A stretch of 60,680 nt of DNA, the filler included, from Dugesia japonica (taxonomy: Eukaryota): the NCBI GenBank assembly GCA_001938525.1. It is 6 parts of 6 records of this genome, joined end to end, with 100 filler letters (N's around TTAATTAATTAA, not from the genome) between each part and the next. Parts side by side here need not be neighbours in the genome. Positions count along the whole stretch, not along the records: positions 9,895 to 21,175 come from MQRL01607154.1; 5 more parts are not named here. One strand, given 5' to 3'. Below, one piece after another: positions 13,060 to 55,347 of this stretch. The notes below the pieces were generated by a model. The model searched no databases, was not told where the DNA came from, and saw only the letters and a program-made list of their open reading frames with translations. Position 1 is the stretch's first letter, and each line of letters starts with the position of its first letter. The position numbers were made by a program, and so were the translations under genes.

Positions 13060-13626
13060 AATTTAATGATTAAATAATTTTTTTAATCTTTAAAATGAAG
13101 TTGAGTGTAGTGCATAAGCTAGTTTCTTGTTTTCTACAAAGACATGTTTTCAAGTTATGTATTTTATTTTCAGGTAGGTTTATATTTTATAAAATACGTT
13201 CAAACGAGAACGTTATATTAATAATAATTATTATTATTCATGTTATTATCCATGAAATCTCAAATGGTGACTTGGCCATTAATTGATTGGATTGATATTG
13301 TGCAACAGCTGAAATGACTCATTAAATTTTCAATTTCAATAACGATAAATGTTGAAAATCATTTCATTTACTCCATTGTTTTACGAGATGATTTGTAATT
13401 AAAATTTCAGATTGACATTAATCATAATATTTCTAGCAAAAAACCCTTTAAATTGTAAGTTTTATTTCACTATTTAATATAATCAAGTTTTATTTGCTGC
13501 AGATAGTCGATAGTTTTTATTTGTTTATTGATGTCAAGTCAACCGATTTCATCAACAATTAAAGAAAATTGTAAAGTTTCAACATCAATTCCAACTGCGA
13601 TTTGTCCAAAGGTTATTCCAAGTTCA
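13060..13626 (+). repeat. ~570-bp direct repeat, copy 1 (copy 2 at 17355-17923)
   Basis: Near-identical sequence from TTAATGATTAAATAA...GTAGTGCATAAGCTAG to CCAAAGGTTATTCC. Confidence 0.9.
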
Positions 13627-14438
13627 ATAGAAATTAAACCATTTAATGTTAAAACTTCTCAACAACGTGAATCTGGAAATAGACAGCCATCATCTGCTAA
13701 TATTTCTTCAGCTCTTGCTGGCATTAATTTCTATGAAGATTGAATTTTGAGATCTATCGAAAAATTGAAAGAAATTGCGACAAGATGCAGATAGAATGCT
13801 AAAATTGATGAAACTATATTACAATATTCATCTTGAATATACAGTAAAAATACACACATATTCGCATCTGATTGGATATTTGTTAAAAACATTGATAAAA
13901 TGTAATTATTCTTTATAATTTTCAAATTATTTTCAAAAACCAGTGAATTAATGAGAGCAAAAAAGTAAATTTATTATTTGTTTTATTTATTAATTTTTTT
14001 CTTTTAGAATAAAATGATAGAAATTAATGGTTAAATTATAAGATACCATTAAAAACAATTATATCATATTTCGAAAATTAAAAATATTAAAAAACTTATT
14101 AATGGAAATTTACAAGACATTACTGTCCCATTATATGAATTAGATTCCAAAAGCTTGGATACCTACAATACAAAATCATAAAAAACAGTATTTAAACAAA
14201 AAAATCAATTTATTGTAAACTGACAGTTGTTGTTAAATAGAAAATGTTCCTCAATGGAAAATTTGTGCCATTCACGGTTCACAACGACCAGTGTACATAA
14301 GATAGCGGCAGACGTCTCACAGTGATCTTTATTAATCATCCAGGCTAAGAAAAGTTCAAAACCGAGTCCATTACCTCCATGAGGACATGAACCAAACCTT
14401 ATACCAGAGTCAAAATAAAATGAAAATAATTATTTAGG

Positions 14439-14980
14439 ATTATGTTGTGCACAAATTAGTATTTTATGAAAACTTTTTCAAAATAAAAGGAAGCAAATAT
14501 TGGAAGACAAAAATGAAGAGATTATTCAGTAGAGATCATGTTCAATTTTTATTTTATTAGTTAATTATATATGTTAACTGCACAAATTGAACAAGCAATT
14601 TTTGGCAAAATCGTCATTTCAATTCTAAACCAGTCTTAACCAATTTGATAAAAAGTATATTGTTCTTAGTAGTAATTTAGATTAATATATTGATCATAGG
14701 ATATTAAAATATATTCATAAATATGAACTGGAAAACAGTTGTATATTATTTAATATTGATAGAAGGAAAGAAAAAATAAAAAATGAATTGGGAGACTTCT
14801 TTTAAAAATTACTAAAATATTCCTTTTATGGAAAGACTTTGGAAAATATTAGAAATAGACGTAATGTAACGATTTGAAATAGATATGAAAAGTTTCAAAA
14901 AGAAGCTGGTAAAATTACGTACAAATTTATTATAATATTTTCAGAAGATGAAGCAGCTTTACATATGAAAAAACCCAAAT
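14439..14980 (+). pseudogene. Third, more divergent Polinton-type pPolB fragment
   Basis: Manual translation gives DYVVH after an acceptor TTATTTAG, and KLLKYSFYGKTLENIRNRRNV (motif B) at ~14805-14875. Confidence 0.7.
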
Positions 14981-15410
14981 TACTCTTTATTTATAGAATC
15001 CAATCATGATAATACTAAAATGAGTTGCGAACAATTACATGATAAAGTTAAACACTAAAGATGAATTACAAAATTCTACAATTTCTAGCTTACGTTGCTT
15101 ACAATCATATGCATTTACTTTTATTGACAAATCAAAGGATTTGTTATCAACTGTAAAACATAAATTGTCTCAATGAATAATATAAAGATTAATGATTTTA
15201 TAAATACATTAAATAATAATACCAAAGTTTATGGATGAAATTATAGTATAAAATCTAATACTCATTTATTGACTAATGTTAAATTGCTTACGATGACTTT
15301 AAGGAAAAATTAAAAAATATTAGAAAATGATATTAAAATATCTCAATAGAAATTGTTGAAATTAAGTTAAATATTTTTTTTAGTTTCTATTTCAGAAAAG
15401 TTAATATTTC

Positions 15411-15450
15411 AGTAGGTAGATGTTAACGCACTGGAACAGGTCACCCCCTA
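15411..15450 (+). mobile_element. Putative Polinton-like terminal motif
   Basis: AGTAGGTAGATGTTAACGCACTGGAACAGG followed by a C-run, matching five other copies. Confidence 0.55.
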
Positions 15451-16469
15451 GAGAAAACTGATAACCTGTATTACTATCTGTTCTACGGGTTATCGTAAAT
15501 TTATTGACTGTTGATCTGATTGATTAATAATATCTGATGTGATTATTTTAAAATTTTGATCTGATTAGATTTAAAAAAATTAAATTTTCAATTCACAAGT
15601 ACACTTCCTAGTCAACACATTAAATTATAATCGTTCACACTAAAATTACAAAGAAGTTATGAAAATGATCATAAATTAAATATAAATTAATAAAAAGATC
15701 CATAAATTATATAAAGTTAATAAAATTTCTAATCAACAAGTTAAACTTATAATCCATCACAATAAACTTTAGTTCATCACAGAAATTTTTAAGTCAAAAC
15801 TTGAAAAATTATAAAAAACTTGTACTAAAATTACATTTCATCACACAAAGTTCTTAGATAACAAATATTTTAAGCAAAGTACCTCTGACAATTATTTATT
15901 ATTATTAAATAATTTTGTTTCAGCATAATCATTAAATATGACTGATATGGAATGTGTGCATTGATTGCATATATAAGCAAGATGCACATATTATTTCATC
16001 ATTTTAATAATATAAAGTAAGATTTTTATTTGATTTGATAAATTATTAATTTTATATTAAATCATTTATGAAATCTTATTATGAATTATGTTAGATATAA
16101 TATAAAACTTATTATGAATTAGGAAAATAAGGAAAGATTTATTTTGTATTTAAATGCTTTTTAATTAAACAGTAATGGTTTTCCATGATTATAATAACTA
16201 TCAATTACTTCTTTTAATTATTATAATAAACATAATAATAATAATCAGTAACAACGAAAGTAATAATAATAATTCTAGAAATTCAAGATACGATTATCAT
16301 AATAACTCTCCTGCAATTATCTTAAGATAATAATATTATTATTTCTGCTCTATTATCTACAAAAAATAATTATATTTTACTTTTACAATATAAATTATAG
16401 TAATGATACCTAAATATTATATAACATTTCAAATTTATGATATTAATTAATTCTACTTTTTTAGGATAG

Positions 16470-16648
16470 TTTTGGTTATAATGGATACTTTACAACATTA
16501 TATATTGCATATATTACACATCAAAACCAATTAGAAACCTTTGTCGAGTTATTAAAACAATCACATAATACAGAATAATGCTTGGTCCAAGACGGGCACT
16601 TGTAACACTTTAATCGTAATTGACATTAATTTAAATATGTGAAATAAA
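16470..16648 (+). pseudogene. Degenerate homologue of mini-ORF 3
   Basis: Acceptor, ATG at 16481, QLETFVELLK versus QVKTFATIIK at ~30045, and AATAAA at 16643. Confidence 0.35.
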
Positions 16649-16719
16649 GTTTGTATCTTATCCTGATTGTCTTAATTTACACTTTTATAAGACGAATTAT
16701 TGATTTATATTTCTTTCAG

Positions 16720-17032
16720 TGCATACTTATCAATTACCAGCCTACATGGTTCGATGCTATCGTTTATTGCAAGGATTTCAATTAGAACGCCGTTACCCTA
16801 AGCATCGTTATTTCGGTATATTCAACAAAAAATCAATTGTATACGTCAATTAGATGCCACGTGCAAACGACAATTATTCATTGCCAATTCCATAAAATGC
16901 TTGCTGCACAAAGTTGAATTCTTCAATCAATATCTAGCATGTCCACAGTAGGCAACGCAAAAAATCCACCAGCGGTTGAACCATGTATTAGTGCCGATAA
17001 TGTCGTTTTCCCTGATGATGGTTTGCAATAAA
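16720..17032 (+). pseudogene. Degenerate homologue of mini-ORF 4
   Basis: TTCTTTCAG|TG-CAT. RCYRLLQGFQLER versus RCHRILRRLLIER, LLHKVEFFNQYLA versus LLRKIDFLKQYIA, NPP versus NPT. AATAAA at 17027. Confidence 0.65.
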
Positions 17033-17354
17033 GTGTGTTTCTTGATAAATTCGCAAAAATATTGAAGTTTATCAACTCTGAAATTTTCTTTAGCAAATAT
17101 AATTTTTTTATCTTATATGAAAAATGTAATTAGAGTCCAAATAGATAATGAACTCTAAATTTTGATTGCATTCACACATGAGCGCTAAAGTAAATATATT
17201 TAATAAATAATTTTAAAAATTTATTAAATGAAATAATTTTATTGTAAGAAATTTTATTAATGAATATAATAAATCTAAAAAATAGTTAAATAAAATAATT
17301 TTAATAAATGTATTAAATTAAACTAATCTAAATAATTAAATTAATCTAAGAAAA

Positions 17355-17923
17355 ATTTAATGATTAAATAAATTTTTAATTCTTTAAAATGAATTTGGGT
17401 GTAGTGCATAAGCTAGTTTCTTGTTTTCTACAAAGACATGTTTTCAAGTTATGTATTTTATTTTAAGGTAGGTTTATATTTTAAAAAATACGTTCAAACG
17501 AGAACGTTATATTAATAATAATTATTATTCATGATATCATCTATGAAATCTCAAATGGTGACTTGGCCATTAATTGATTGGATTGATATTGTGCAACAGC
17601 TGAAATGAATCATTAAATTTTTAATTTCAAAAACGAAAAATGTTGAAAATCATTTCATTTACTCCATTGTTTTACCAGATGATTTGCATTTATAATTTCA
17701 GATTTACATTCATCATAATATNTCTAGTAAAAAACCTTTTAAATTGTAAGTTTATTGTTTAATTTCAATATTTAATATAATCGAATTTTATTTGCTGCAG
17801 ATAGTCAATAGTTTTTATTTGTTTATTGATGTCAAGTCAACCGATTTCATCAACAATTAAAGAAAATTGTAACATTTCAACATCAATTCCAACTATAATT
17901 TGTCCAAAGGTTATTCCGAGTTC
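17355..17923 (+). repeat. ~570-bp direct repeat, copy 2
   Basis: Matches 13060-13626. Confidence 0.9.
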
Positions 17924-18079
17924 TGATTTACAAATGAAGCTAAAACTAGTTATAGAATTTTTGCAAATACAAACTTAAGCATTGCAACTAAATTTTGCTA
18001 TTATGCCGATAAAAGAATTTTGAGAAAATATTCAACAAAATTATTCATTTTCTCAATTAAAACCATATCAATCAATATA

Positions 18080-18507
18080 TTAGGTTGTAACATGAAATAT
18101 CCGATTATAGAACTCGTTTTTTAAACTTATATATTTTTATGTAATATTTAACATTTAGAACTTATTTATATATCATTTTTAAGGTGGAATTTTTGATAAT
18201 CATTTTATAATATTTGTTTTAAAAATCTTTTTATTTAAATTATTTTTAGACAGTATTTATATTTGATAATTTTGATAATTTTTTGGTTAAAAAAATAATT
18301 GCTGATCGGGAGGGTGTCAAAATTGCCATATCCGGATACATAGACTCCAGAGAAAAAAATTATTTTGCTAATGGTTTTTTGAAACTAGTTTCTAGATGGC
18401 AAAAAGGTGCAGAATCCGATGGGGACTATTTTACTTAAATAATATTTGATTTTATTGGACTTTTATTGTCTATTACGTAATGGGACATTTCATATGTGAC
18501 AACCTAA
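18080..18507. mobile_element. Mariner-like non-autonomous element (MITE)
   Basis: Imperfect TIRs TTAGGTTGTAACAT.. / ..ATGTGACAACCTAA, flanked by TA on both sides. Confidence 0.65.
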
Positions 18508-18539
18508 TATTTCTTCTAAAAACATTTACTATTAGTTTA

Positions 18540-19697
18540 GCTCCATTTACATAGAAAGCGTTAGAAACGCTAATGGTGTTGATAGTGACTTATAGCGGTT
18601 AAAATCAAAGAATACCTTATAATACAAGTGACACCGAATTGACAAGAACCAATGATTTTTCTCCGCTTTCCAGAGTATAATGGCAAAGCTGATTAAGAAT
18701 TATGATAATCAGAAACAAAAAATATCTCGAGTATAATGTTAAAATGAAAAAGTATATTGGCATTTGAAATGAAAGAATTTATTGAATGCAATGCTAATTT
18801 ATTATATCTATGAAAATAACAAAAACTCTTACGAAAGAGATTAAATGCATCAACAAACATAACATAGAATGCTAAGAGAAAACATCAAATTCACTGATGA
18901 AAGGTCATAGCAATTAAGATGTAACCGGTGCTAATGACATTAGACTAGCAAGATGAACCACACATTACAATATCAAGTAATAATTTACTAAATTCCACTT
19001 CTAAAGATGAAGCAGATAATAAAGATTTTGAAAAGAACTTTTATGTTCAACAAGCTCGACGTTACCGAACTGATATAGAAAATGAGAATGTAGAAATATC
19101 TCTAATCTATACATTTAAACTTGAATAAGGTAGAGAAAATAGATCAGTCATACAACATAAATGTAATTAAGGCTACGTCGCGTTACCCGAAAATAATACA
19201 AAAGGTAGCTTATGTGGTAACTAAATTATCTACAACCAAAGTTTGTGTAGAAAGTTAATTTTCTGCGTTTCTAATTATTGTTTGAGCCTGCAATCATCGA
19301 TGAAGGGTGATTCGACTGAAACTAAATTGTTCATTTTGATTTTTGATAGTAAATTGTTATTAATAAATTATATCAATGTTTTTACCCATTAAAATTTCTT
19401 AATATTGTTATTTGTATTTCGTTTTCATGTCTTGAACTAATATCTGGAGATTTTGTTTTAATAATAATTTTTGTTATATTATATANAAATATGAATTACT
19501 TAATTTTTATAAATTTACATTCTAACATTTGTTATTTTGCTTAAAGCTTTTTATGAAACAAGTAAAAAAGCCTAAAATTTAATCCTTGTTAATTTGGTTC
19601 AAATAAAGGTGTCGAAGCCAAAGCTATTCACTTTAAAATTAACTCTGGAATCGGGGTCGGAGCTAATCCAATATTGCTCTGGCTCCCCAGCTTTGCT
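18540..19697 (+). mobile_element. Decayed hAT element: C-terminal transposase remnant and 3' end
   Basis: TTKVCVES*FSA (~19232-19268) resembles the hAT dimerisation motif PTTQ..ERLFS. The GGAATCGGGGTCGGAGC subterminal words resemble the 3' end of the 53666-54901 element. Confidence 0.5.
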
Positions 19698-20927
19698 GAC
19701 ATAGTAAAGTGTTATTACAAAAAAATTTTGTAAATGAATAAATTTATATTTTTGCAAGAGGTAGATAACAGAAGAGCGGTTAGCGACTCTGATCAATAAA
19801 GAGCTTCTATCTCTTAATTTAAAACTGAATGAAATAGATACGCACCTACCTACACTTCCGTGAAGAGTTATCNAATCCGCTGAGAAGCGGTTTCAGGACG
19901 GCAGGGTAAATCATGGACGATTATGGTCAGATACACATAGGCAGTACACTAATCAACACAATGTAGATTAAATTAACTACTCATACCCAAACATTAATAT
20001 TTGTGCCAATTTTAAATTATTATAACAAATATATATATCTTGGCACTTCTTAGTTAATATTTAATACATCAAGGCTTCTGTAATAAAACATGTTAAAAAT
20101 ATGGCATTTGTCCAAATATGGGCATTAATGTATTCACTTTCCTACAAAAATGTTTTGAAAATTGTAATTTATGCAAAACAAGCACGTGCTAAAAAAAGTA
20201 TAAAAGCTACAAAAAAATTTGTAAAATTAGTTTATCGATATTATAACAAATCGAGAAAACAAGAAATGATTTAAACACTTTAAATAGTTTTTGGAAATAA
20301 TCATTATCGTAACAAGATATTTTCAAATAATAATGTTTATTATGCTAGTTAATCATATTCGCTAACATTTAAATAAAACGCCACGGAAGATTCTTTTGTA
20401 TGAAATACTCAATAAAACAAATTACTGATGTATTAAAGTGATCAATGATGAAAAGATTCCTTGTCAAAAGATAAACGATGGAACAAAACCTGGTTTATTA
20501 AAATGATATACGATATGGAAGATCTTTCTATAGGAGTAAAATAGAATAAATGTTGATTTATTAAAAACGAATATATCAGTTAAAATAAATAAAATATGGT
20601 CAACATAAAACAGGCATACCAAATTGAGTAAACACCAAGGGCCATATGTGTTACGTTTGTATTGCTTGAGGGTAGCATAAATTCATTTTATTTTGTATTT
20701 ATGCTTCTTCTGGTGTGTAAAAAGCTAGTTGAAAAGGACATAAATCGTTTTTAAACAAAAAAATTTTAAATGATAAAATTATGTCATTTATCATTTTATG
20801 TCATGTTTGTTAAAACTCTAAAAATCACAGTTTTGGAGGTTAAATTATCAAAATCTAGAATTCTTTGAGTGTCCCGCGTGTTTGACATAACTGACATACA
20901 GTATTTAAGGAGTCACAGAATAATAAT

Positions 20928-21028
20928 GGTGAAAATGAAATTAAAATTGAAATAGAAATTGAAAATGAAATTAAAAAATGAAATTGAAAATGATATTCAA
21001 AATGAAATTCAAAATGAAATTTCAAAAT
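20928..21028 (+). repeat. 12-nt tandem repeat (TGAAATTGAAAA-like)
   Basis: Seen directly. Confidence 0.75.
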
Positions 21029-22097
21029 GCTGAGAATATTTTCTGAATTTTTTAGAAAAAATGCCCTGATGCAAATATTGAGATAAGGTGATTAGTAGTA
21101 TTTTTTTATTGATCTGTAAATAAATGAGAAAAGACGACAACAGATTTAATATAAAATGTTTGATATCCAAAAACGNNNNNNNNNNNNNNNNNNNNNNNNN
21201 NNNNNNNNNNNNNNNNNNNTTAATTAATTAANNNNNNNNNNNNNNNNNNNNNNNNNNNNNNNNNNNNNNNNNNNNTAAGAATTAAAATTAACCAATTAAA
21301 ATTTAATAAAAATACATTATTTCAAAAATTATTACTATTATAAACATAAATCTTGAAATAAAACGATCAATGGTTATGTCCAAAAATTATTCTCGTAATA
21401 ATTGCAATTGTACAAAAATTAATTAAATTATCAATAAAAAATTAAAATCACATTTTTTTGCATTCTTTTTATTAACCAGACTAATGTGAGACTTTGGTGA
21501 AAAATGACGGGCGAAAATTCGAGTTTTTACTGAATATCAATTTTGTTTTGTCTTTATTATGTTTTACAATGTTCGTCATCATTAGTAGCCATTTATTATC
21601 AAATTATTATCTAATTCAAAATGATTTTTATTTGATATTATTTTTGATAAATAAATGAGGAATGTTTACAAATCAGTATTATTTAAGCTTCATAATATTA
21701 ATCAATGCCAGCCGGTTGATTGATATCATTTGAGTTTTTAATTAATAAAGTTACAAGAATAGGTTTAGGGATTCACTGTATATGAGTTGTGAACCCAATT
21801 TAGAAATGATAATAATACTAAATTAAGTACAAATATGAAATTAAGTACAATTTATAAAAAGTATATTAATTTGCATAAAAAGCATTTTATAATATTTTCC
21901 AGATTTTGGTGTGCTAGACTTACAAATATTACTGATTACCCATAATTTGATATCTTTGACTCACTGAGAAATATGTATCTTTTTAAAGATTTTTTTGGAA
22001 AAGGCATTGTTTGTGTGTGACTAGCTAATTGTCTCATCGTAATAATAAATATTATTTCCTCTTTTTATGTACTCCTTATCCTCCTCTACCATTGCGT

Positions 22098-22531: not shown

Positions 22532-25500
22532 AGTAGGTAAACANTAGTGCATATCCCCCTATCAATTTTATCCCCAATCGAACCCCCACCCACGAGCGAA
22601 AAAGTAGGGATAAATTTTTAAAATAAATTAAAAAACGGGATAAATTTTTTAAAATATACAAAGATAGAACAGAAAATACTTTAAAACAATAATTCGAAAA
22701 ATAAATTAAAAGTGGTGTTTAGTTGGGAAAATTTTTAATTAAAATTTAATTTAAATTGGTGATTGATTTTAAAAAATTTAACTAAATAAAATATACAAAG
22801 ATAGAACCGAAAATACTTTAAGACTAAAATTTTTATCCCCTGCGCCACAACTTTGATAATAGTCCCAGTAGGTTAAATAATTTGATGATTAACTCGAATA
22901 GAACAATTGTAAGACATATTGAGAAACATTACAATAAGTAAATAAAAAATATAACAGAAAATATCTTAAAACTAAAATTTATTAATAAAATATGATATTG
23001 TTTGGTCTGATAAAAAACATTTGGATTGAATGAGCTGAAATAATAAATAATAATTTAATTCAAATCTAGATAAATCATTACCAGGAAATTGATTGTATGC
23101 ATAAAAGTGTTGTTAATCAAAGGTGTGATATAGATATTTCACAATGACCGTATGGTATACTTTTATTCTTTTCTACCCATACTCTTTTGTCATCTGTATT
23201 ACTTAATGCTATTTTAGAATTATCAAAACTAAATAATTGATGTTTACGCGTACCAATCCTGAACTGATTAATTGAGACTGCTTGATTGTTTGTATAACAA
23301 TCTTGATAAGATTGATGAGCTAAGAGAGTGCCTTTCAATGTAATACCCTTAGCTTTCATACTCTCTTTATCACTAAGAAGACTGTAACACTTAGATCTCA
23401 AGAATATCCATTCACTGTACTTATTTTCCTTATTTTCATCCTTGAATCTACCTACAACATAATTCAAATCTTGGTTATAAAGAGGATGTGTTTTGCAATA
23501 GTTTGACGTGTCAAGCAGCTTATCTGTTACCATCNNNNNNNNNNNNNNNNNNNNNNNNNNNNNNNNNNNNNNNNNNNNNNNNNNATTTCAATAATTTATC
23601 TAATCTTATGTCAATAATCTCAAGGAAGAAGCTATCGATAACACCAGTAACAATATTGATCGTACATTTCAAATCACACCTATATTTCTGAAGTTCAATG
23701 TACTTTAATCGGTCCATCCTTAATTTAGAAAGATCAAGAATCATTTGATCAATGTAACTTAGCCTATCCAAACAAATCGATTCTTTGTTTAATAAAACAG
23801 CAATGAAACCATCATCTATCTTAATAGACTCCCTAAACCCTGCTTTCGATGTATAAGTTAAAGGTTTTTAGAGGAATTACAAAGTCCGAGATTCATTCTC
23901 TTTTTCAGATTCTCCCATAAAGACTAAAATAATTTTTATACAGATCAGAATTACTTTGTGCTCTTAATTATGTATTATCATCAATATATTTCTTAAAGAT
24001 GTAGTCTTGATAAAACTTAACAGCTCTATGAACTTTGTTAATTTTAACACCTAATTGCAAGTACATTTGTAACAATCGCGAATGCACAACATAATTATTC
24101 TTATTGTTATGTGTTAGTAACAGTTTTTTCACTTTAGATCCAGGAGGACATTGGTATTCAGTAGCAACCGGAAGATCAGACAAATGATTATGTAAATCAA
24201 TAGAAATTTTGACACCAACCTCAAAAGTATATCCATAAGATAACGAATCCATGTCAAAAATGAAACAATCATTCAATAAATCATCAAAACCAGAATAAAC
24301 CCATTCAAAATCCTTATACGGAAGTTTTTCGCTTAAAGCCCAACCATGCAAATTATTGATGTCAATGTATAGGAGCTCAGTTGTTTCATTGGCCTCAACA
24401 AAATGCTTGTTAACAAAGGTAAGACCTCCTCTAATACCACCTTCAAAGAAAGTGTACAAGTCATTATCAGTCAATAACTGAATTGGATCAGTTAAAGTCA
24501 TCAAGGCAGAAGCCCATGACGTTTCAGGAATTCCAAAGAAAGTGCGGGGTTCAAGACCATTATGAGCTATAGATTTTTGTCTAAATTATTGGAGGAAATC
24601 AGCAAAAAGAAAAACATCACGTTTTAGATAGATCATCATATAGTCAAGTAAGTTATCACATTCGGTAATTTCCAACATTTCGAGAGCGTTATTAAAAGAG
24701 TCATCTGTAATACCATTCCATTTAGGAGGCATTTCAAATGTTTCGTCTAATATCTGTAAACTAGAAGCAAATTCATNTGGGAAAATCCCTTTTGATTTAA
24801 CAATTCTATCGTCATTAAATTCAATAGAAGTTAAAGGTGTAGAATTTATGGTCTTAACAGCAGCATCAAGAAATGAGTTAATGAATTGATAACTATCAAT
24901 GAACTTAATTACAACATTTCCTGCATGAGCAATAAGACAAAAGAATTTCTGATGTTGTAGGAATACATGAAATATTCTATTCAGTAAAACGATTCAAACC
25001 ATATTTGAGAATATGATGGAGATCATATAGTCGCAAATTATGAAAAACAACAATCTTAGAATCTTCCTACTCAAGTTACACTTATTGGAAGCAGGACCTA
25101 AATATTTACGAGAAAAATTATCATGATCACGAACCGGGTCATTTAAATTATTTTTACATAGATAACAAGTTTTAGAAGCTTTAAATTGAATTACTTCTGA
25201 TGGTGTAATCACAATTTTCTTATTTCCATTCTCTTCATAATAATTAGCAACAGTCTTACTTATTTCCTCAACCGCTTTCAAAAATTCGAATACACAATTC
25301 AAACCTATAAACTGTTTATAATTGAATTCATTAGTGAAGTTATTAACTTGCAGAAATAGGTGAGTGTTTATGAAGATATTTTTCATGTTTTTTTAGAATA
25401 GACTCAAAATCAGAGTAAATAAAAAAAGCTGGTGTTAAAGTTTTCAAAAAATCTTTAAACACTAAAGCATGATCATAAGGCATTGTATATAGAGTAGTAC

Positions 25501-25790
25501 CTATTTGAATTCTACTACAAAGTGGAATATGAGTGTCTAAAGATGATTGATCNCTAAAGCCATTCAAACAATTTTCACACCTGATAGAGCGAATTCTCGT
25601 ACTTTTACCTTGTGTATCCCAATCCATAAGCCGATTCAAACTCATTACCGTGATGTAATGATATTTTCCACCTTCCTCCAGTAATAAAAGATTACTTTTT
25701 CTAGCTGCTTGAACATTACTCCTATGAATAATATCTAGATTAGAATGTTTCATGATTACATAGTCATCATCAATATCATCAGTATTAACA
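22532..25790 (-). mobile_element. Polinton/Maverick fragment: terminus plus pPolB transcribed toward it
   Basis: AGTAGGTAAACA.TAGTGCA followed by C-rich words at 22532, ~585 bp beyond the pPolB stop. Confidence 0.7.
23117..25790 (-). pseudogene. Polinton-type pPolB with N-terminal zinc finger and endonuclease-VII-like module (frameshifted)
   Basis: HY...SLNRL...CENCLNGF...LDTHIPLC; YSDFES (Exo I); CYLC...VRDHDNFS..Y.G....CNL; KGIFP; GIRGGL; LYIDINNLHGWA; KAKGI; DDKRVW. Confidence 0.92.
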
Positions 25791-25799
25791 ATTTTTAAT

Positions 25800-26580
25800 A
25801 AATAAAAATAGAAGCAATAAGAACATTTGGCAAACCTAACTGTGTCAAGAAGCTGCGAAGTATTTTAGGAATTTATAATTATTACAGGAAATTTATAGAA
25901 AACTACGCAAGAAAATCAAGAATCTTAGAACAGTTGTGTAGCAGATCAAGCAACAAGAAATTAGAATGAATAGATGAAATAAACGATACTTTTGAGGGTC
26001 TGGAAAAATCTCTAATGACTGCACCAATATTTTTTTTTCCAGACATAAACAGAGAATTTATATTAGATACAGATGCCAGTTTTGATACAATTGGAGCAGT
26101 ATTGTTACAGAGAGATAAAGAAGGAAGAAAAAGAGTTGTTGCCTATGGATCACACTCAATGACGAGTCATGAAAAGGGATATTGCATTACACTAAAGAAG
26201 TTATTGGCTGTTTATTATTTCTGTATGCATTTCAAACATTACTTGTACGGTAGAAGATTTACTCTTANNNNNNNNNNNNNNNNNNNNNNNNNNNNNNNNN
26301 NNNNNNNNNNNNNNNNNCACAATTCCAGACATGGATTAATTATCTGAGTAGTTTAGATATGGTTTTGGAATATAGAAAAGGAATTCAACATATTAATGCA
26401 GATATGTTATTTAGACCAAGATGCACGATGTCAAATGTCACATGAAGATACCAAGAAAGGGAAGATTAAAACAAGAATACTGAACATAATTTAAAAGGAA
26501 AAAGAAGATCATTTAAACATTTCTGAGGAAACAAATTTAAGCAAGAAAATGGAAATTCCGGATGACAAAATACATGAGAC
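25800..26580 (+). mobile_element. pol: Gypsy pol fragment (RT thumb/RNase H)
   Basis: LRSILGIYNYYRKFI; FILDTDASFDTIGAVLLQ; HFKHYLYGRRFTL; YRKG..H.NADML. Confidence 0.88.
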
Positions 26581-41198: not shown

Positions 41199-42359
41199 NN
41201 NNNNNNNNNNNNNNNNNNNNNNNNNNNNNNNNNNNNNNNNNNTTAATTAATTAANNNNNNNNNNNNNNNNNNNNNNNNNNNNNNNNNNNNNNNNNNNNTA
41301 CAACTCAAGTGTTAATTTTTATGGAACCAAATAACAAAATAGAAGATTCTGAGGAAACTACTTACAATCCTAGACAAAATATTTTTTAATTAACATAAAT
41401 TTGATTTAACGTTAATTTTTAACTTTATATTTATTAGGTAGTGGGCATACAGACCCATTATACAAAACAAAATCGTTTTCAGCTAATATTTATTGAAAAT
41501 TATAACAATGAATACAAATATAATTTGGGCAAAATATAAAAATCTTCAGTAATGATTAGGTAACAATTCAATAAAATGATATAAAATAAACTTGACATAA
41601 TCCAAACTGAAAGTATTCCATATTTTTACCAAATTAATTTAGAATTTTCACCAATAATTTCCAGTTGGTAATTAAATCAATTCTTCCAAGAATAATTCTC
41701 CATAATCAATTAATTCAGATATCCAACAAAAATCTTCAATAATCAAATGATATTATCTTCGAATGAAAATATCCAATAATCAATTAACTCCAATATCCAA
41801 CAAAAATTTTATAGAAAGGGGCTTGAAATAATAAATATTGTGTAACTTGCTGCAAATTTCTTACTAACTCCTTAAACTTAATATTCAAACTAACTAGTTT
41901 TACTAAACAATATCCAATTTCAATAAAAAAATAAAGATAATTAAAACTATTTGTGAGTGTGTTTTAAAAAGCGAGTGGAAATTTTTGTGTGATTAGTGAT
42001 AATTTTTATTTAAAAAATCTTTGTTTTCAAAAAAGAATTAAATTATAGATTAAAAAATTTAATAACGAATATTTGAACTAATATTTTGAAAAATAAATTA
42101 AAATAAAATTTATTTTCAATTGCATAGATCAAAACGATGTTTTTCTATTTTCATAGATTGTTCAATATTTTGGCTCTGCCTTCTTCAGGAACTATTGCTC
42201 AATTCATTTTGGTTATAAATGTTTAAATAGAAACAACACAATAGAAACACAATAAAAATACATTGCACTATTTTACCGAAATTATGTTCAATAAATTTGA
42301 AATTTAATGTTATGATTGGTGATCAATGAAAATTAATTTTAATCGGATTTATTTAACAA

Positions 42360-43786
42360 GATGAAAGCATACCAGTGTTAGTTAATACAGATTTCTTAAC
42401 AGAAGTGAACAATACCAGCATAGCACAGGTAGTTATCCGAACTATAATTGAGGTGAACTTCAATGACGTTGTGGCATTTGTCACAGATAATGCAGTTTAT
42501 ATGAAAAAATGTTTTCAGCACCATTTGCGAGGAATATTGCCAAATGCCGTTCAGATAACATGTTTGGAGCATATTTTGTCATTAGTTAGAGAAGAGTTTC
42601 GTGAATCACTTGAACTTTCTGATAAGCTCGCTGCTTCTGTCAAGGCCATCTTCTGCAAAGCACCAGAACGCCGTGCTAGATATCTTCATGATCTGCGACA
42701 AATGAATGTCGAAAAGGCAATCATGCCGACGACTCCAGAAATCACAAGATTGAACTCTTGGTTCGAGGCCGAGAAATATCACGCTGAATATCTTGACCTT
42801 TATATATCATTCGTTGCTGCTGAAATCGAACACAGTGGAGCTACAATAACGTTAAATAAGCTTTCAGCGTTGCTGCAAAGCACTGATACATTGAACGAGC
42901 TAAGAGCTGAACTTTAAATTGTATGTGTTCACTGCCAGCCAATTATGAGCTATTTGACTTCTTTTGAGACAAAGTCATTCATGGCTGTCGATGTCTTCAA
43001 TAAAGTGTCTGACTTATTGTCTTTTCTGAAATCCCCCAAATTTTCCCTTGCAACGAGCAGCTGTGAAGATGCAATGCGTAATGCTGGAACTAAACTTACA
43101 GAATATGTGTATGGAACCAAAAAGCCAGCAATAACTTTATTTAGATTTGTCAGAATATTTGAACCAGGACAACTACCACTCTTATCAAAGAATTTTACAG
43201 AATATGTACAATTAGTTCTGGCAATGAGAGATGTAGCGGATGAATGCCAAGCTTATTTAGACATAGAATCTCGTGAAGTAATCCATGCTAATATCAATGA
43301 TTTTTGGCGTGCTTTAGAGAACAGATTGCCTCACTTAGCAAATACATAGCGTTGCCGATCTCTTCTGTTGATTTTGAACGTTCATTCTTGAAATATGGAT
43401 CGGTAATGTCGCCACTAAGGTATTCTCTGTCACAGCAAAACCTAAGAGCCTACAATGCCATTTACTTTATTGATAAATAATTATTGCAATTTTTTTAATT
43501 TAAATTGATTTGAGTTCTTTAGCTTTTATATTTCACTGTGAAATTATTATTAGTAATTTATTGCGTAATCTAGAACATTACGTCATCTCCAGTGTGCCGC
43601 GGTACGCCGCGGTGTGCCGCGGAATATAATAAAATTTTAGCCGCGATAAATCGTGGGCCCTAATGATCAGTGATCACTAAATTTATTACACATATTACAT
43701 AATTTAAAGGTTGAATTACACAATTTCGCTGCGCGCTTGTGAAATCAGCGAATTCCGCGGCGTGCCGCCGTAAATCGTGGGCCCTA
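42360..43786 (+). mobile_element. hAT element 3' half: transposase remnant (DUF659/CGGBP-like) and two GC-rich right ends
   Basis: FVTDNAVYMKK, ITCLEHILSLV (CxxH), TRLNSW, FW...LP.LA, P.SSVDFERSF. Ends AAATCGTGGGCCCTA at ~43662 and ~43786. Confidence 0.85.
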
Positions 43787-43794
43787 CTTATTAC

Positions 43795-46700
43795 AGTTAA
43801 AAGACTTGAACTTTCCATAAGTATTTATTAAAATAAAAACTATTTATTAATAATGAATTATTTAAACAAATAATATCATTTAATATTAACAAATTTAAAT
43901 CTTAATATCATTTTATAAATGATGTTTAACTGCTCTCTCTCTCTCTTTAATTTTGATTTTCAATTTTCTTTAGCAATTCAAGTCTTCTTGGTTTAAACTG
44001 TCCTGCATAATCTAGAAGCACCTGATGTGGGCTTATACATTTACTAATTTTGTTAGGACCCTCATACCTGAAACCTTCTTTATTTAATTTGGGTGGTTCT
44101 ACTTTCAATAATACTTTTTCCCCTTCTTCAAAATGTCTGGACGAACGTTTGTCACATTGGTATTTGCTTAAGTTTTGAGCTGCTTTCTGTAAATTTTCAT
44201 CTGTCAGTTTTTTTCATTTCTTTGTGTTTCGGATTTCTTTCTTGTGGTAATCCGTGTAAGACTTTCCTTCTTCCAAAAATAATTTCAAAATGAGAGAGAC
44301 CCGTCAATTTTTGTTGTGTTGCATTTATTACAAACTGAATTCGTGGAAGTAATTTATTCCAACTTGATTCCGTGCAGCCGTTTTTTATCGTTGTTACCAT
44401 CATATCTCGAAGTGTTATAATATTTCTTTCTGCTAAATCATTTGATTGAAGTTGATATGGGGACGAAAAAACTTGTTGAATCTCAAATTTCTCTGCAAGT
44501 GACCGCATTAACCTTCCTTCAAATATTTTTGCTCTCTCAGTCAAAAATGATTTTGGCTTACCAAAATGATATATCCAGTTTTCCTTTATTGCCTCAATTA
44601 CCAAAGTTTCATCCTGTTTACTTAACGCTACGAATGAAACTAACTTACTATATCCGTCAACCCTGACGAGAATAAATTTTGTTTGGTTTTCACTTCTGGG
44701 AAGTAAGCGATATCCATGATAACCTGTTCTAGTAGTCCAAATTCTGTTCTTGGAATAAGAAATTCCTTTGTTCTCTCAGTGTATGTTTTATGCATGTTAC
44801 ATATCATACATTTTTTAGTTGATGTTCTACGTTTCTTTGCATATTTGGCCAAAAATAACTTACACTCAAATACTCAGTCAGTTTTTGGCCTCCCACATTA
44901 CATAACTCATCTTGTATAAAATCTATAAGGTCATGTATCGATTTCCCTGCCATTACAATTCTTTTCTTGTCTCCTTCATTGATAATCAGTATCTCATCAT
45001 CCAAATCAAACTTTTCCAGTTTGGAAAAATATTTACTTTTGGTGACCATTGTGCTGAGCTTATTATTTATCATTCCACTTTTCATATATTCAATGATTTC
45101 AATTGTATCATTTCTCTATACTTCTTTAATATGGCTTCTATCAAAGTTTGTTTTGTCTAAATTGTTGATTCTTTGAACTCCAGATCGTTCTGCTTTGGCA
45201 TCTTGATATATAGTCTGACATTGCAAACAAAGACTCTCTCCTATCCCTGAAAGTCCATCGGCATTTCCACGAGCTGCTCTTTTTCGGAATTTTAGTTCAA
45301 AATTAAATTCTGCTAGATTCGTTATCCATGTTCGAAACTGAGAACTAATTGGCTTACTAGTCTTCGTCATAAAAGTCAATGCTTTATGATCAGTTCTTGC
45401 TCTAACTTTCTTGCCATACAAATAGTGTTTAAAATACATCATAAACTCATGTAAAGCTAACAATTCCTTGCGAGTAACGCAATATCATTTTCGTGACTGT
45501 TTAAAGTTCGAGAACCATATGTTATGACCAGATCTAATACATTATCCGTTATTTAACTCAAAACCCCCCAATTGCTCCAAAACTAGCATCCGTATATAAT
45601 ATCATTTCGCCTCTAATATTTGGGAAAGTCAAAATCGGAGAACTACACAATTTTATCTTCAAAGATTGAAAACTATCCTCGCATTCATTTGTCCATTCAA
45701 TGTTCTTTTCTTATCCTATCATCGCTACATACAATGGTGTTGCAAGTAAAGCATAATCTTTACGTCTGTAATAATTTGTTAATCCTAAGAACGGTCGTAT
45801 TTGCGTGGCACATTTTGGCATTACGGTTTCATTATATCAATAACTCTGATAAATTTTGGACAAATATTTTTAACAATTACTACTTTTTTCTCTTTTTACT
45901 TCCCATTCCATTGTAATTTCAGTTTAGTTTTCCCGATACATATTTCTCTTTTTTCAGAAAACACTCCTGCTAGAACAATGTGTGACGACGATAGATCAGG
46001 TGATCTAATTCTTCTCAACACATCCGCACTCATGACTGATGCTGCTGCTCCTGAATCCTACAACTTCTCAATGTCATATCCATTGGAACGCATTAAACTC
46101 TATTTTCTTCCATCTCTCTTCTGAAACCTCTTTACATCATCGAAGATCAATTTTTCATTTCGGAGTATTTTCTCTGTTATTGCAACCTCACTGAGGAGAT
46201 GGATGGAGTAGTTTGTTGATCGTTTTTTTATCATCATCGTCTAAAAAAACATCGTGAATATACTCAATTTGTTCACCACTGTAAGATAACATATCATCTT
46301 CTTCTGTAATACATAATATCTTCGGAAATTAAGAATTTCTCATTCGGATAATTGGACAATCTCGAAAATTATGACCTTCTTTTCTACAAATTAAACATTT
46401 GTCTTTTAATGGGCAATTCATTCCTCTACGTATCTCCACTGCAGAAATATGCTACCAGTGCTAAAACGTCTTCGCGCGGAGGATTCTTTCTTTTGGTTTT
46501 ACAATAAATTTATTTGGCTATATACTTCATCGAGTATTGAGAAAAACTATTGTTTTGGGCCCGTTTTTGGGTCTGAATTTTATTTGCACAATACTGATTC
46601 TCTTTGAAAACAATTGGTCGACTTCTTATACTTGGATCGTTTTGAGTATTCATTCTTGAATAAGTTTTGAAAACGTTGACTGATACTCATCTTTCTTCGC

Positions 46701-49790: not shown

Positions 49791-51581
49791 GAATTTTATA
49801 GAAAACGTCTCGATTAGTTGACTAATAATCTCACTAGTTATTCTTAATTGAAATCATTTCTGCTATTAACGGAAAAAACTTTTAAAAAAGTAATAAATAA
49901 TTTTTAAAAATAAGAACAAAATTAAAATCCAAAAAAATTTCATACAAATTAATGCTAAAATATGAAATTTATATTCACAAAATAAGATTAAATTAGAATA
50001 TGCATGGTTTACTGCATTTTCAATACAAAAATACGTCTCTAAATACATTGAAAATTATATGAGAAAAGGTTTTTTTTAAATTTCGAACAAGCTTGACTCT
50101 TTTGTGTGTGTGTGTGTATGATTTGTGATGAAAGTTAATTTGTCATCAATTTCTATCGGTTATCACGAACAACCGATTTTGCATGTGTGAAAAATACTAT
50201 CTAAATAAATTTACATTATTTTACGTTTTGCATAATTTTGCCGAAGATAATAGTTGTATTATTTATTCGATTTATTGATGCGTCTGAACCGTAAATTAGA
50301 CATGTTTTTTCTGAAAACTTTGACTCAGGCTTTACAATTATTTTTTTTATTTTTTAAAATTTTTTTCCCTATTCAATATATGATTTTAAATTTTTCTTGT
50401 TCTTCTTCGTCTAAAATTCATGATTTTTCATTTTTCAGTTATTATTTCGATAATTTTCTATTTTCCATTATCTTTTCTTTATTTTATTATTGTTTCTTTT
50501 TTATATTTATAATTAAAATATTCCATTAATTTAGAAATGATTTATCACAAAAAAAACTGATTAAGAATTAAATTAATCTGGAAATTTTATTATTGAAACA
50601 CTTTATTATTGCGCATTAAATGAATTTCATTTCAAGGAATAAATTCGACTCAAATGCGTAACAAGATGTACAGTAATGAACTGGGAGAATGATAGAAGTC
50701 CTTTCAATCTCTTCCGGCTTGAAAAATGACTATGGAAAATAAAGCTAAAGTAAGACAGGAAAAGAACAATTTAACAGAAATTGAAGAATTGTATAAAACA
50801 TGGAAAGAATTAGCTAATAGCAGAGTTCTTTAATTTTAATTTAGAAATATAATATGCAAGATAGTTTGATGTTTAAATATTTTACCATGTGTAATTTGGT
50901 AATAATGAGATCAATAGAATCACAAACAATAAAACAAGTATGTTTACATATAAAATATTCCTAGATAAACACGCAGCGCATGAACAATCGCATTTCAAAC
51001 TCGACCAAGGTTAATGGAGAAGAATTTTTAAATTCAGATCAATATCAACTACCAAAATATCTTAGTGCTGTAGGAGTTTTACAATTGATTGTGGCAATAA
51101 TTCATTATTAATAATTTTCGTTTATGAATATTTGGCAATTCCATTTCTTTTGTGACTAATTATTCTTGTTTCAATAACCACTCATTTGGCAACATATTGA
51201 AATTTTATTGAGTATTAAATTTCTTAAATTATAAAGTAGGAAAAATGAAATTATATATTTAATTGAAATTATAGTAAAAAACTTTCCAATTAAAATGAAA
51301 TTTAATATGAAATTATTTTTTTATTTTAATCAGTGTTTTCAAATTCTATCTAAACTTAAATTTTAGTAAAGTATTTATTTGAACATTCGATTAAGAGACA
51401 GATTATTGTGAGAATGAGATTTCAAATTAGAAAGTAGATAAAGTTTGGAAGCTAATGACAACGATTAACTTGTTGTAAATTTTAATGGAAAATTGTGTTA
51501 AATAAAAATGATCTGATCAAAATTATTTAAATCCCAAAAATCTTAGAAAAAAAACTAGCCCGAAAATTCTCATCAGTTGTC

Positions 51582-51606
51582 AGTAGGTAGATAGTGGCGC
51601 ACTGGN
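51582..51606 (+). mobile_element. Putative Polinton-like terminal motif at contig end
   Basis: AGTAGGTAGATAGTGGCGCACTGG. Confidence 0.55.
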
Positions 51607-51705: not shown

Positions 51706-52807
51706 ATTTTTGGAAGTAAACCAATTCTTTGTTTCCTTAGATACATGAATAGAAGCGTTATCTTGCTGGAAGACAAAGGTATTCTCAGNAATCTTTAATA
51801 AATATGGTAACAAATTGTTTTTTAATACATCAATGTAATTAGAACTGTTCATTTTTGAAGAAACGAACTCAATAGCAACCGTACCATTTGCATTAAAAGC
51901 AGCCCAAACCACTTGAGAACCGCCACCAAAATTGCGTTTTGAAAAAATAAGTGGTTCTTTCCTTAAATCTTGCCAATATCCGTTGAAACCGCCCGGACCA
52001 CCAAGAACAAACTTCTTTTCATCAGAAAATATTACCTGTAACAAAAAATTTTGAAATAAAAAAATTATAACACAAAAATTTNNNNNNNNNNNNNNNNNNN
52101 NNNNNNNNNNNNNNNNNNNNNNNNNNNNNNNNNNNNNNNNNNNNNNNNNNNNNNNNNNNNNNNNNNNNNNNNNNNNNNNNNNNNNNNNNNNNNNNNNNNN
52201 NNNNNNNNNNNNNNNNNNNNNNNNNNNNNNNNNNNCCAAACTGTTGTTCTACTTGCATCAAGGTTCAACTGCCCCTTAATTAGTTCGACACTTTTTGTGC
52301 TGTTTGATGCTTCATTTACAATTTTTCGTTTTGTACGAGGGGACAAAATGTTTTTACGTCCACAATTCATGTATTTGGTACCATATGCAATATTATTTTG
52401 CAAAAAATTTGATACAACACCTCAACATCGGCCAATTTTTCAAGAAATTGAATGAATTGACTCACCGACCTCATGAAATACTGAAATCTTTCCTTTTTCG
52501 GTTTCCGTTAACTTTTTTCCTCTTCCCATACCAATGAATTTGTTAAAAATATATTAATATGCAAATAAAATATTAAAATTGAATTTTTGGCAAGCATAAA
52601 ACCANNNNNNNNNNNNNNNNNNNNNNNNNNNNNNNNNNNNNNNNNNNNNNNNNNNNNNNNNNNNATTTTTCTAAATTTTTTGAGTAAATACGAATTAATT
52701 TATTTTTAATATAATAGTAATGACTGAAACCTTTTAGCTTTAGTAATAATAATAATATTACTTAAGTAAAGAAAAATATGGTGGTCATATCATTTTGAAA
52801 CAGAGTT
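51706..52807 (-). mobile_element. Tc3-like (Tc1/mariner) transposon, 5' part with intron-containing transposase
   Basis: MGRGKKLTETEKGKI...GRKNILSPRTKRKIVNEASNS...LNLDASRTTVW; VIFSDEKKF...YWQDLRKEP.IFSKRNFGGGS..VWAAF; FQQDNASIH. TIR-like ACTCTGTTTCAAAATGATATGACC at 52807. Confidence 0.9.
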
Positions 52808-54901: not shown

Positions 54902-55159
54902 GTTATTAAATATATTGTTGTTTCTATTTATTATTTAAATAATATTTTCTTGGAATATTTACCTTGTTTGCTAACACTCAATTTTGACCCTCTAAATAAT
55001 ATTTGACAAACTTTATTAATTGAAACATGCAAAATGTATATTTTAGGAAAATATGTGGAAATAAAACAAATTTATCCACAAAAATAAAATTAAAATTAAA
55101 ATATTATCTTTATGATAATTATAATGTAACAAGTCTAATATGAGATATTTCAATTTCAA

Positions 55160-55347
55160 TTTGATAAATCTAATTTTATGCTCAGCAATATTACAATCAC
55201 CGCCAAAACGATTATGCTCTTGAACCCTTGTACAGAGATGACGGCAGTCTCTCCAAGGTATGTAGCAGCACACCCATTACATTAAAATTGATAAACAAGG
55301 TTAAAACACAAACCAATTGGTGTATTGGATTTATTAACAAAGTTATT
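55160..55347 (-). mobile_element. Second Penelope GIY-YIG fragment
   Basis: Close nucleotide match to 34825-35000 (RHLCTRVQEHNRFGG..NIAEHK). Confidence 0.85.

Follow-up and report, generated by a model that had tools for sequence, protein, structure and literature searches.

A decayed reading frame at 16720–17031 (+ strand) of the 60,680-nt stretch of Dugesia japonica DNA analysed here (the window) matches ORF4, a small gene of an LTR that lies on the next contig. The preliminary description of this locus had offered two readings, either that accessory genes are shared between an LTR retroelement and a Polinton-like DNA element, or that an old LTR fragment is nested here. The second of these fits the data better, and Polinton sharing was not supported. 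Our preferred explanation, in which our confidence is about even, is that the relic is a stranded fragment from a distant branch of the micro-gene LTR family, nested among Polinton debris.

Results

Six contigs make up the window, separated by N-TTAATTAATTAA-N spacers at 9795, 21176, 32411, 41199 and 51606. It is AT-rich and crowded with decayed mobile elements. These include an element with 277-nt inverted ends that are 100% complementary (35712–38194), inside which are tandem arrays and, at 36924, an end of the TGTAGGTAGAT type, a DUF659 remnant (42357–43349, +), which we take to be hAT-associated, a Gypsy integrase and RNase H remnant (44197–45484, −) and a Tc1-like frame recognized by eye (51790–52420, −). 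The locus under study, 15411–17032, sits on the contig at 9895–21175.

The LTR used for comparison, on the next contig, is 4.3 kb long (26733–31043, +) and is preceded by an RNase H piece of Gypsy type (PF17919, E 1e-27). We infer that it is an LTR, with no paired LTR or primer site visible: it starts at a purine tract followed by TG, has CCAAT at 27166 and TATA at 27239 (module 27166–27245), and holds a row of acceptor-ORF-AATAAA units. A diverged second copy on the first contig (1–2530, −; score 112, shuffle maximum 44) has its own CCAAT/TATA module and open frames at 92–358 and 1582–1884, neither of which significantly matches ORF A, ORF3 or ORF4. An A-ending donor-like site occurs at the corresponding position in both copies. 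ORF3 (29828–30141, +) has one internal stop in this copy and ORF4 (30402–30784, +) is open over 127 codons; each has an AG|TG start, with the TG right at the acceptor, and ends before an AATAAA. At 30235–30385, about 50 nt are repeated either side of an N gap in the assembly, and the contig joint there skips 100 nt. Behind 31029 the loose ends of 41 contigs run into an AAT microsatellite. Summed depth in DNA run X2 is extreme in a short segment near the LTR 3′ end (30962–31030), whose last bin reached 187,035 and vastly exceeded the remainder of the LTR; this segment may be common to many families or a separate repeat. Within ~100 nt of a long broken pPolB (23117–25864, −) come the Gypsy RNase H piece and the LTR; we read this junction as a case in which the micro-gene LTR family is nested at what remains of a Polinton.

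The relic is the best non-self match of ORF4 in the window; its TG start directly follows an acceptor and it ends at an AATAAA at 17027. A frameshift-tolerant scan of both strands with ORF4 as the query gave a score of 72 at 16939, the next non-self place scoring 46. That score was reached in one of 701 whole-window scans with shuffled ORF4 and in none of 600 local shuffles, and the reversed ORF4 scored at most 48 in the window. With an X placed at the break to join the frames, the relic scored 66 against ORF4 (0/5000 shuffles). The match, with an identity of about 30%, is collinear and runs in two frames from the acceptor onward, the frame of the relic changing near 16826–16833 and then near 16940–16950. 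Likeness was also detected in the DNA of the first 81 nt (0/3000 shuffles) and of the zipper end (1/3000), both segments having been picked after the protein match was known, and there was none between the relic locus and the LTR in the ORF4 tail or the spacers. The match escaped plain tBLASTx between the locus and the window and was recovered by short-word tBLASTn at E 0.002. The ORF4 match asserted in the preliminary description is thus upheld by both sets of shuffles and by the AG|TG acceptor that the two frames have in common, and the peptides it quoted were located on the + strand in three different frames (QLETFVELL at 16528, RCYRLL at 16752 and LLHKVEF at 16901).

In base composition the relic (38% GC, within surroundings of 16–21%) is closer to the LTR ORFs (44–51%) than to the pPolB frames (22–32%). 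A contig of run X2 spans 16092–17428 with one other letter and no gap; therefore, the frame breaks are present in the DNA of the X2 sample, which may be the source sample.

The predicted acceptor of the relic is a pyrimidine-rich AG|TG site (16705–16721, +) in the same register as those of LTR ORF3 and ORF4. TG directly follows 33 of the 502 acceptor-like sites in the window, and it does so in both ORF4s. An ORF3-like stretch (16465–16648, +) is composed of an acceptor, a short broken frame with QLETFVELLK and an AATAAA at 16643. The acceptor/AATAAA layout was said to be the same as in the LTR; both ORF4s are started by AG|TG, and the AATAAA-to-acceptor distance is 77 nt at the relic locus versus ~87 nt in the LTR, the 100-nt assembly duplication discounted. 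The weak ORF3 match claimed for QLETFVELLK was not significant: 32/600 and 41/400 shuffles were equally good at the expected place, ORF3 fell below the window background and was not among the top whole-window matches, and tighter hand-picked pairings (43/5000 and 6/2000 shuffles) were borderline at best. ORF A has no counterpart at the relic locus. A high-copy fold-back (15924–16022, +; z −2.3), with an acceptor-like site before it and, at 16017, an A|GTAAG donor at its end, is, on its sequence, a candidate leader exon; A precedes GTAAG at 31 of the 70 GTAAG sites in the window.

A single-sequence model of LTR ORF4 predicted helices at 8–36 and 40–92 (mean pLDDT 79, pTM 0.39), the first of them basic and the second with heptad columns, and an acidic tail that is disordered in the model. 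Among the features of the bZIP class, the long helix with a heptad repeat is present in the model, whereas Pfam gave no bZIP match up to E 5, nor any other Pfam relative, and the N-x7-R basic motif, checked by eye, is out of register. HBZ and Meq are viral bZIP proteins in which, as in the ORF4 model, a basic helix is followed by a heptad zipper; ORF4 differs in its lack of the Pfam match and in the register of the motif. Most plausibly, ORF4 would be a basic-zipper or zipper-only regulator. No relatives of ORF4 were found in a set of 5.8 billion proteins (10 candidates; 2 candidates in a second search, for which ORF4 and the relic were aligned), among 1.84 billion representatives, or in viral or metagenome contigs. 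Residues 39–127 gave nothing above chance in the Atlas, one Atlas cluster (17% bZIP_2) had a score of 0.80, which is chance level, and 0/10 matches to viral folds were found at E 0.001.

The genomic abundance of the arm and of the ORFs was read from one DNA run (X2), in which relatives are seen at a likeness of at least 85% for the locus and 82% for the LTR; summed depth should not be taken as copy number and can be inflated in AT-rich sequence. At 85%, depth was 1069–2152 in five bins of the arm (15652–16121) and 9–20 in eight bins of the ORF stretch (16310–17061), compared with 14–15 in the unique flank, placing the arm about 100 times deeper and the ORF stretch at the unique level. Variants common to 10–24 contigs at 16032–16132 indicate that the arm relatives are real, and they fade gradually, from 2430 at 16041 to 472 at 16060, 120 at 16146 and ~20 at 16199. 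The depth pattern of the LTR is the opposite, its ORFs being the deepest-covered genes: at 82%, the ORF3–ORF4 bins had depths of 1975–4216 (437 over the N gap) versus 78–227 in the non-coding 27280–28874. The sharing reading carried its own test, namely that other copies of the arm should have the ORFs, and these were not found at a likeness of at least 85% in this one run. A rare gene-carrying arm subfamily is possible, because relatives below 85% are invisible and there was one DNA run. The relic is nevertheless unlike a conserved passenger gene, since it has been kept less well than the non-coding arm.

In about a quarter of each of two oligo-dT RNA runs, X16 and X19, there was no depth at 16780–17061 and no splice joint, and depth at 16404–16779 was at most 0.9, in X16. 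Runs X16, X19 and X15 had no reads on LTR ORF4, a depth of at most 1.2 on ORF3, and no joint; as LTR ORF4 is silent there too, these runs are uninformative on the splice model. With two frame breaks and no RNA reads on most of its length the relic is a dead copy, and it probably does nothing today.

The locus opens with a repeat end, AGTAGGTAGA at 15411, within the motif AGTAGGTAGAT-N6-GCACTG (15411–15445, +). The window has three exact matches to this motif and one with two mismatches, 0.01 being expected by chance. The upstream flanks of the four ends are unrelated and only about 35 nt are common to them; two of the four begin TGTAGG and the rest AGTAGG. The motif was absent from metagenome contigs, and the end regions, for which Helitron and hAT origins were also considered, folded no better than shuffles. 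At 51582 an AGTAGG end directly abuts an inverted piece of the arm of the 36924 end (84% over 69 nt, 51498–51605), which suggests that AGTAGG-ended elements insert into each other. The arm itself includes an AT-rich array of loose tandem units (15560–15920, +) that is high-copy in the genome.

Two pPolB remnants had been reported for this contig and three pieces were found, all left of 15411: one at the start of the contig (9945–11212, +), a short piece (12745–12955, +) and a heavily decayed remnant of a third lineage (14650–14982, +) ~430 nt left of the AGTAGG end. The last of these, at unique depth, was detected with P0005 (E 7e-7; 0/100 shuffles), and its extension by eye to ~15350 was not significant (119–123/200 in shuffle tests). 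The pPolB relatives carry PF03175. Between the remnants is an asparaginyl-tRNA synthetase-like fragment of cytoplasmic type (14208–14429, −; C-terminal motif, E 9e-7). To the right of the end, no pPolB was found in 15411–21175 (three of nine relatives in frameshift-tolerant searches, all nine by tblastn), and the first 24 nt had no inverted partner with up to 7 mismatches in 15435–21175; the element may be truncated. Pfam searches of six frames in 17927–20271 detected neither integrase nor ATPase, protease or capsid, at a sensitivity lowered by decay. The arm thus has neither the paired terminal inverted repeats nor the internal pPolB of the Polinton class. A candidate AGTAGG element would be at most 1.9 kb long, because a 90% copy of 13004–13625, whose source is outside the AGTAGG end, begins at 17286 (17286–17923, +) and forms its right bound. 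More broadly, 13004–13743 and 17286–17978 form a direct repeat of 640 nt in low copy number; its exon-like frames resemble each other at the start but not further on, and may be parts of a host gene family.

On the next contig, the variant AGTAGGTA at 22532, 0.6 kb past the 3′ end of the long pPolB and facing inwards, hints at a Polinton end, with the 8-mer being near chance (3 seen versus 0.97 expected; 5/100 shuffles). Vertebrate Mavericks have the end motif (AG)3 or (AGT)2 in the available part of the source (PMC8097293), compared with AGTAGG/TGTAGG at the arm ends, and flatworm ends may differ.

Discussion

The reading of the relic as an LTR fragment fits its ORF4 homology, its splice register, the depth pattern and the GC content, as well as the lack of an inverted partner and of pPolB right of 15411 and the resumption of the outside repeat at 17286. 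Neighbourhoods of LTR and Polinton sequence need no gene sharing, since the LTR family abuts pPolB on the next contig too, and this junction together with the AGTAGG end at 51582, abutting an inverted piece of a sister arm, indicates that nesting is routine here. Against the LTR fragment, the locus has no CCAAT/TATA module (as had been stated for 15411–17032), LTR 3′ end or neighbouring gag-pol; compared as DNA with either LTR copy the whole locus scored 43 and 50, below shuffle maxima of 54 and 57. The insignificant ORF3, the missing ORF A and the dissimilar spacers and ORF4 tail also count against it. In addition, the arm relatives fade without a sharp insertion edge, and the A|GT donor of the arm would complete the ORF4 start.

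Under our preferred reading, splicing in the ancestor would have joined the AG|TG acceptor to a leader exon with A as its last base, creating an ATG. The gene, which would have had a poly(A) signal of its own, would have encoded a protein with a basic helix and a zipper-like part. A nested insertion would have put the LTR piece beside the AGTAGG repeat end and the pPolB remnants, after which the promoter and the LTR 3′ end were presumably lost and the remaining sequence became richer in AT by drift. The upstream spacers are 8–9 points lower in GC than their LTR counterparts. That the piece stops at the poly(A) signal is indicated by the stretch after the last AATAAA, which lacks likeness to the LTR 3′ end (1837/3000 shuffles as good; 18% versus 41% GC). 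This boundary may have arisen through a deletion or, speculatively, through copying from the 3′ end of the element RNA.

Of the other explanations, the one that deserves most attention, though we think it rather unlikely, is that a DNA element had captured the gene from the LTR family and carried it as a passenger. The relic would be either the gene of a rare AGTAGG subfamily, with the leader exon 15924–16016 spliced to AG|TG, or part of an old Polinton, represented by the pPolB at 14650–14982 and later split by the arm. The absent LTR promoter and 3′ end would then need no explaining, the gradual fading of the arm family would be natural, and the end, array, donor and acceptors are on the same strand and in order. 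The pPolB at 14650–14982 is likewise on the + strand, decayed and at unique depth, and the variant at 22532 faces the long pPolB. However, the ORF stretch has no second copy at 85% even though the arm is abundant, there is no partner end and no pPolB in 15411–21175, and the 8-mer at 22532 is near its chance frequency. Moreover, the vertebrate Maverick motif (PMC8097293, as far as its available part goes) is found at none of the four ends, two of which start with TGTAGG, A before GTAAG is common, and no spliced read was found. More doubtful still is a broader version, in which one and the same spliced micro-gene module belongs to a Polinton-like element and to a giant Gypsy LTR, the relic being the fossil on the Polinton side. 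In such a module alternative last exons would each receive the A of their start codon from a leader exon, and one of them would encode a bZIP-like regulator of no known family, and the module would have crossed between RNA-replicating and DNA-replicating elements in the same host.

Two further possibilities seem improbable to us. The AGTAGG/TGTAGG end could be the 5′ end of another LTR family, so that 15411–17285 would be one truncated LTR with no Polinton involved; half of the four ends do begin with TG, and the array, leader-like exon and acceptor-ORF-AATAAA units come in LTR order. What precedes 15411, however, is pPolB debris and not a purine tract or pol, the CCAAT/TATA module and the LTR 3′ end are missing, and the other arm copies lack the ORF stretch. 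There is a similarly slim chance that the ORF4 likeness is a coincidence between helical, zipper-like frames, or that the relic is a dead host exon, given an identity of ~30% over short pieces, shuffles that do not keep heptad periodicity, and host debris as near as the synthetase piece at 14208–14429. A collinear two-frame match starting at the acceptor, reached by 1/701 shuffles and not approached by the reversed ORF4 (48), argues otherwise, as do the likeness in DNA and the lack of a relative in protein libraries.

The available parts of the published sources allow a comparison with several known systems. Burro/GYPSM1 are giant Gypsy-like planarian LTR retrotransposons with accessory ORFs and domains in the internal region, of which decayed fragments have been described from a related species (PMC6431247). 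They resemble the family considered here in that both are Gypsy-type, have long LTRs as well as accessory ORFs and occur in AT-rich genomes of animals, and differ, in a comparison by description only, in that their accessory ORFs are internal whereas the micro-genes here are in the LTR (PMC6431247). The start codon completed by splicing has a parallel in a Gypsy-type element, the env of Drosophila errantiviruses of the springer subclade, whose leader gives AU, whereas here A alone is predicted to do so, for a small LTR ORF (bioRxiv 10.1101/2023.08.03.551782). Most genomic copies of Polintons/Mavericks are degraded, and accessory regions exist in them (PMC6431247, PMC8097293). The arm is Polinton-like in its nearby pPolB remnants and AG-starting end, but has no paired TIR; with one end present it shows no target duplication, and no core gene was found inside the end in the frames scanned. 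Adintoviruses are animal elements of the Polinton class with small accessory genes that move between lineages; in the part of that account available, the exchange is among adintovirus lineages, with likeness to venom proteins, and not with LTR retroelements (PMC8502044). In animals with a piRNA-pathway knockdown, both LTR elements and Polintons become de-repressed (PMC8532177). In the article texts consulted we found no case of gene traffic between an LTR retroelement and a virus-like DNA element and no description of LTR micro-genes; planarian Polinton ends may be given in supplements or repeat libraries.

If the relic is a stranded piece, the ORF4 family would be old and diverse, with ~30% identity between members that keep the same split-start layout. 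The relic is then useful for a profile of ORF4, a protein without a database relative, and is otherwise ordinary transposon debris. Were the gene to turn up inside Polinton copies, accessory genes would clearly have moved between LTR retroelements and virus-like DNA elements.

Elsewhere in the window, two pieces at 34630–35040 and 55043–55346 (−) are 91% alike and have no Pfam match. Judging by a sequence motif, we presume that they resemble Penelope-type endonuclease ends. One of the two starts ~110 nt after a TGTAGG end.
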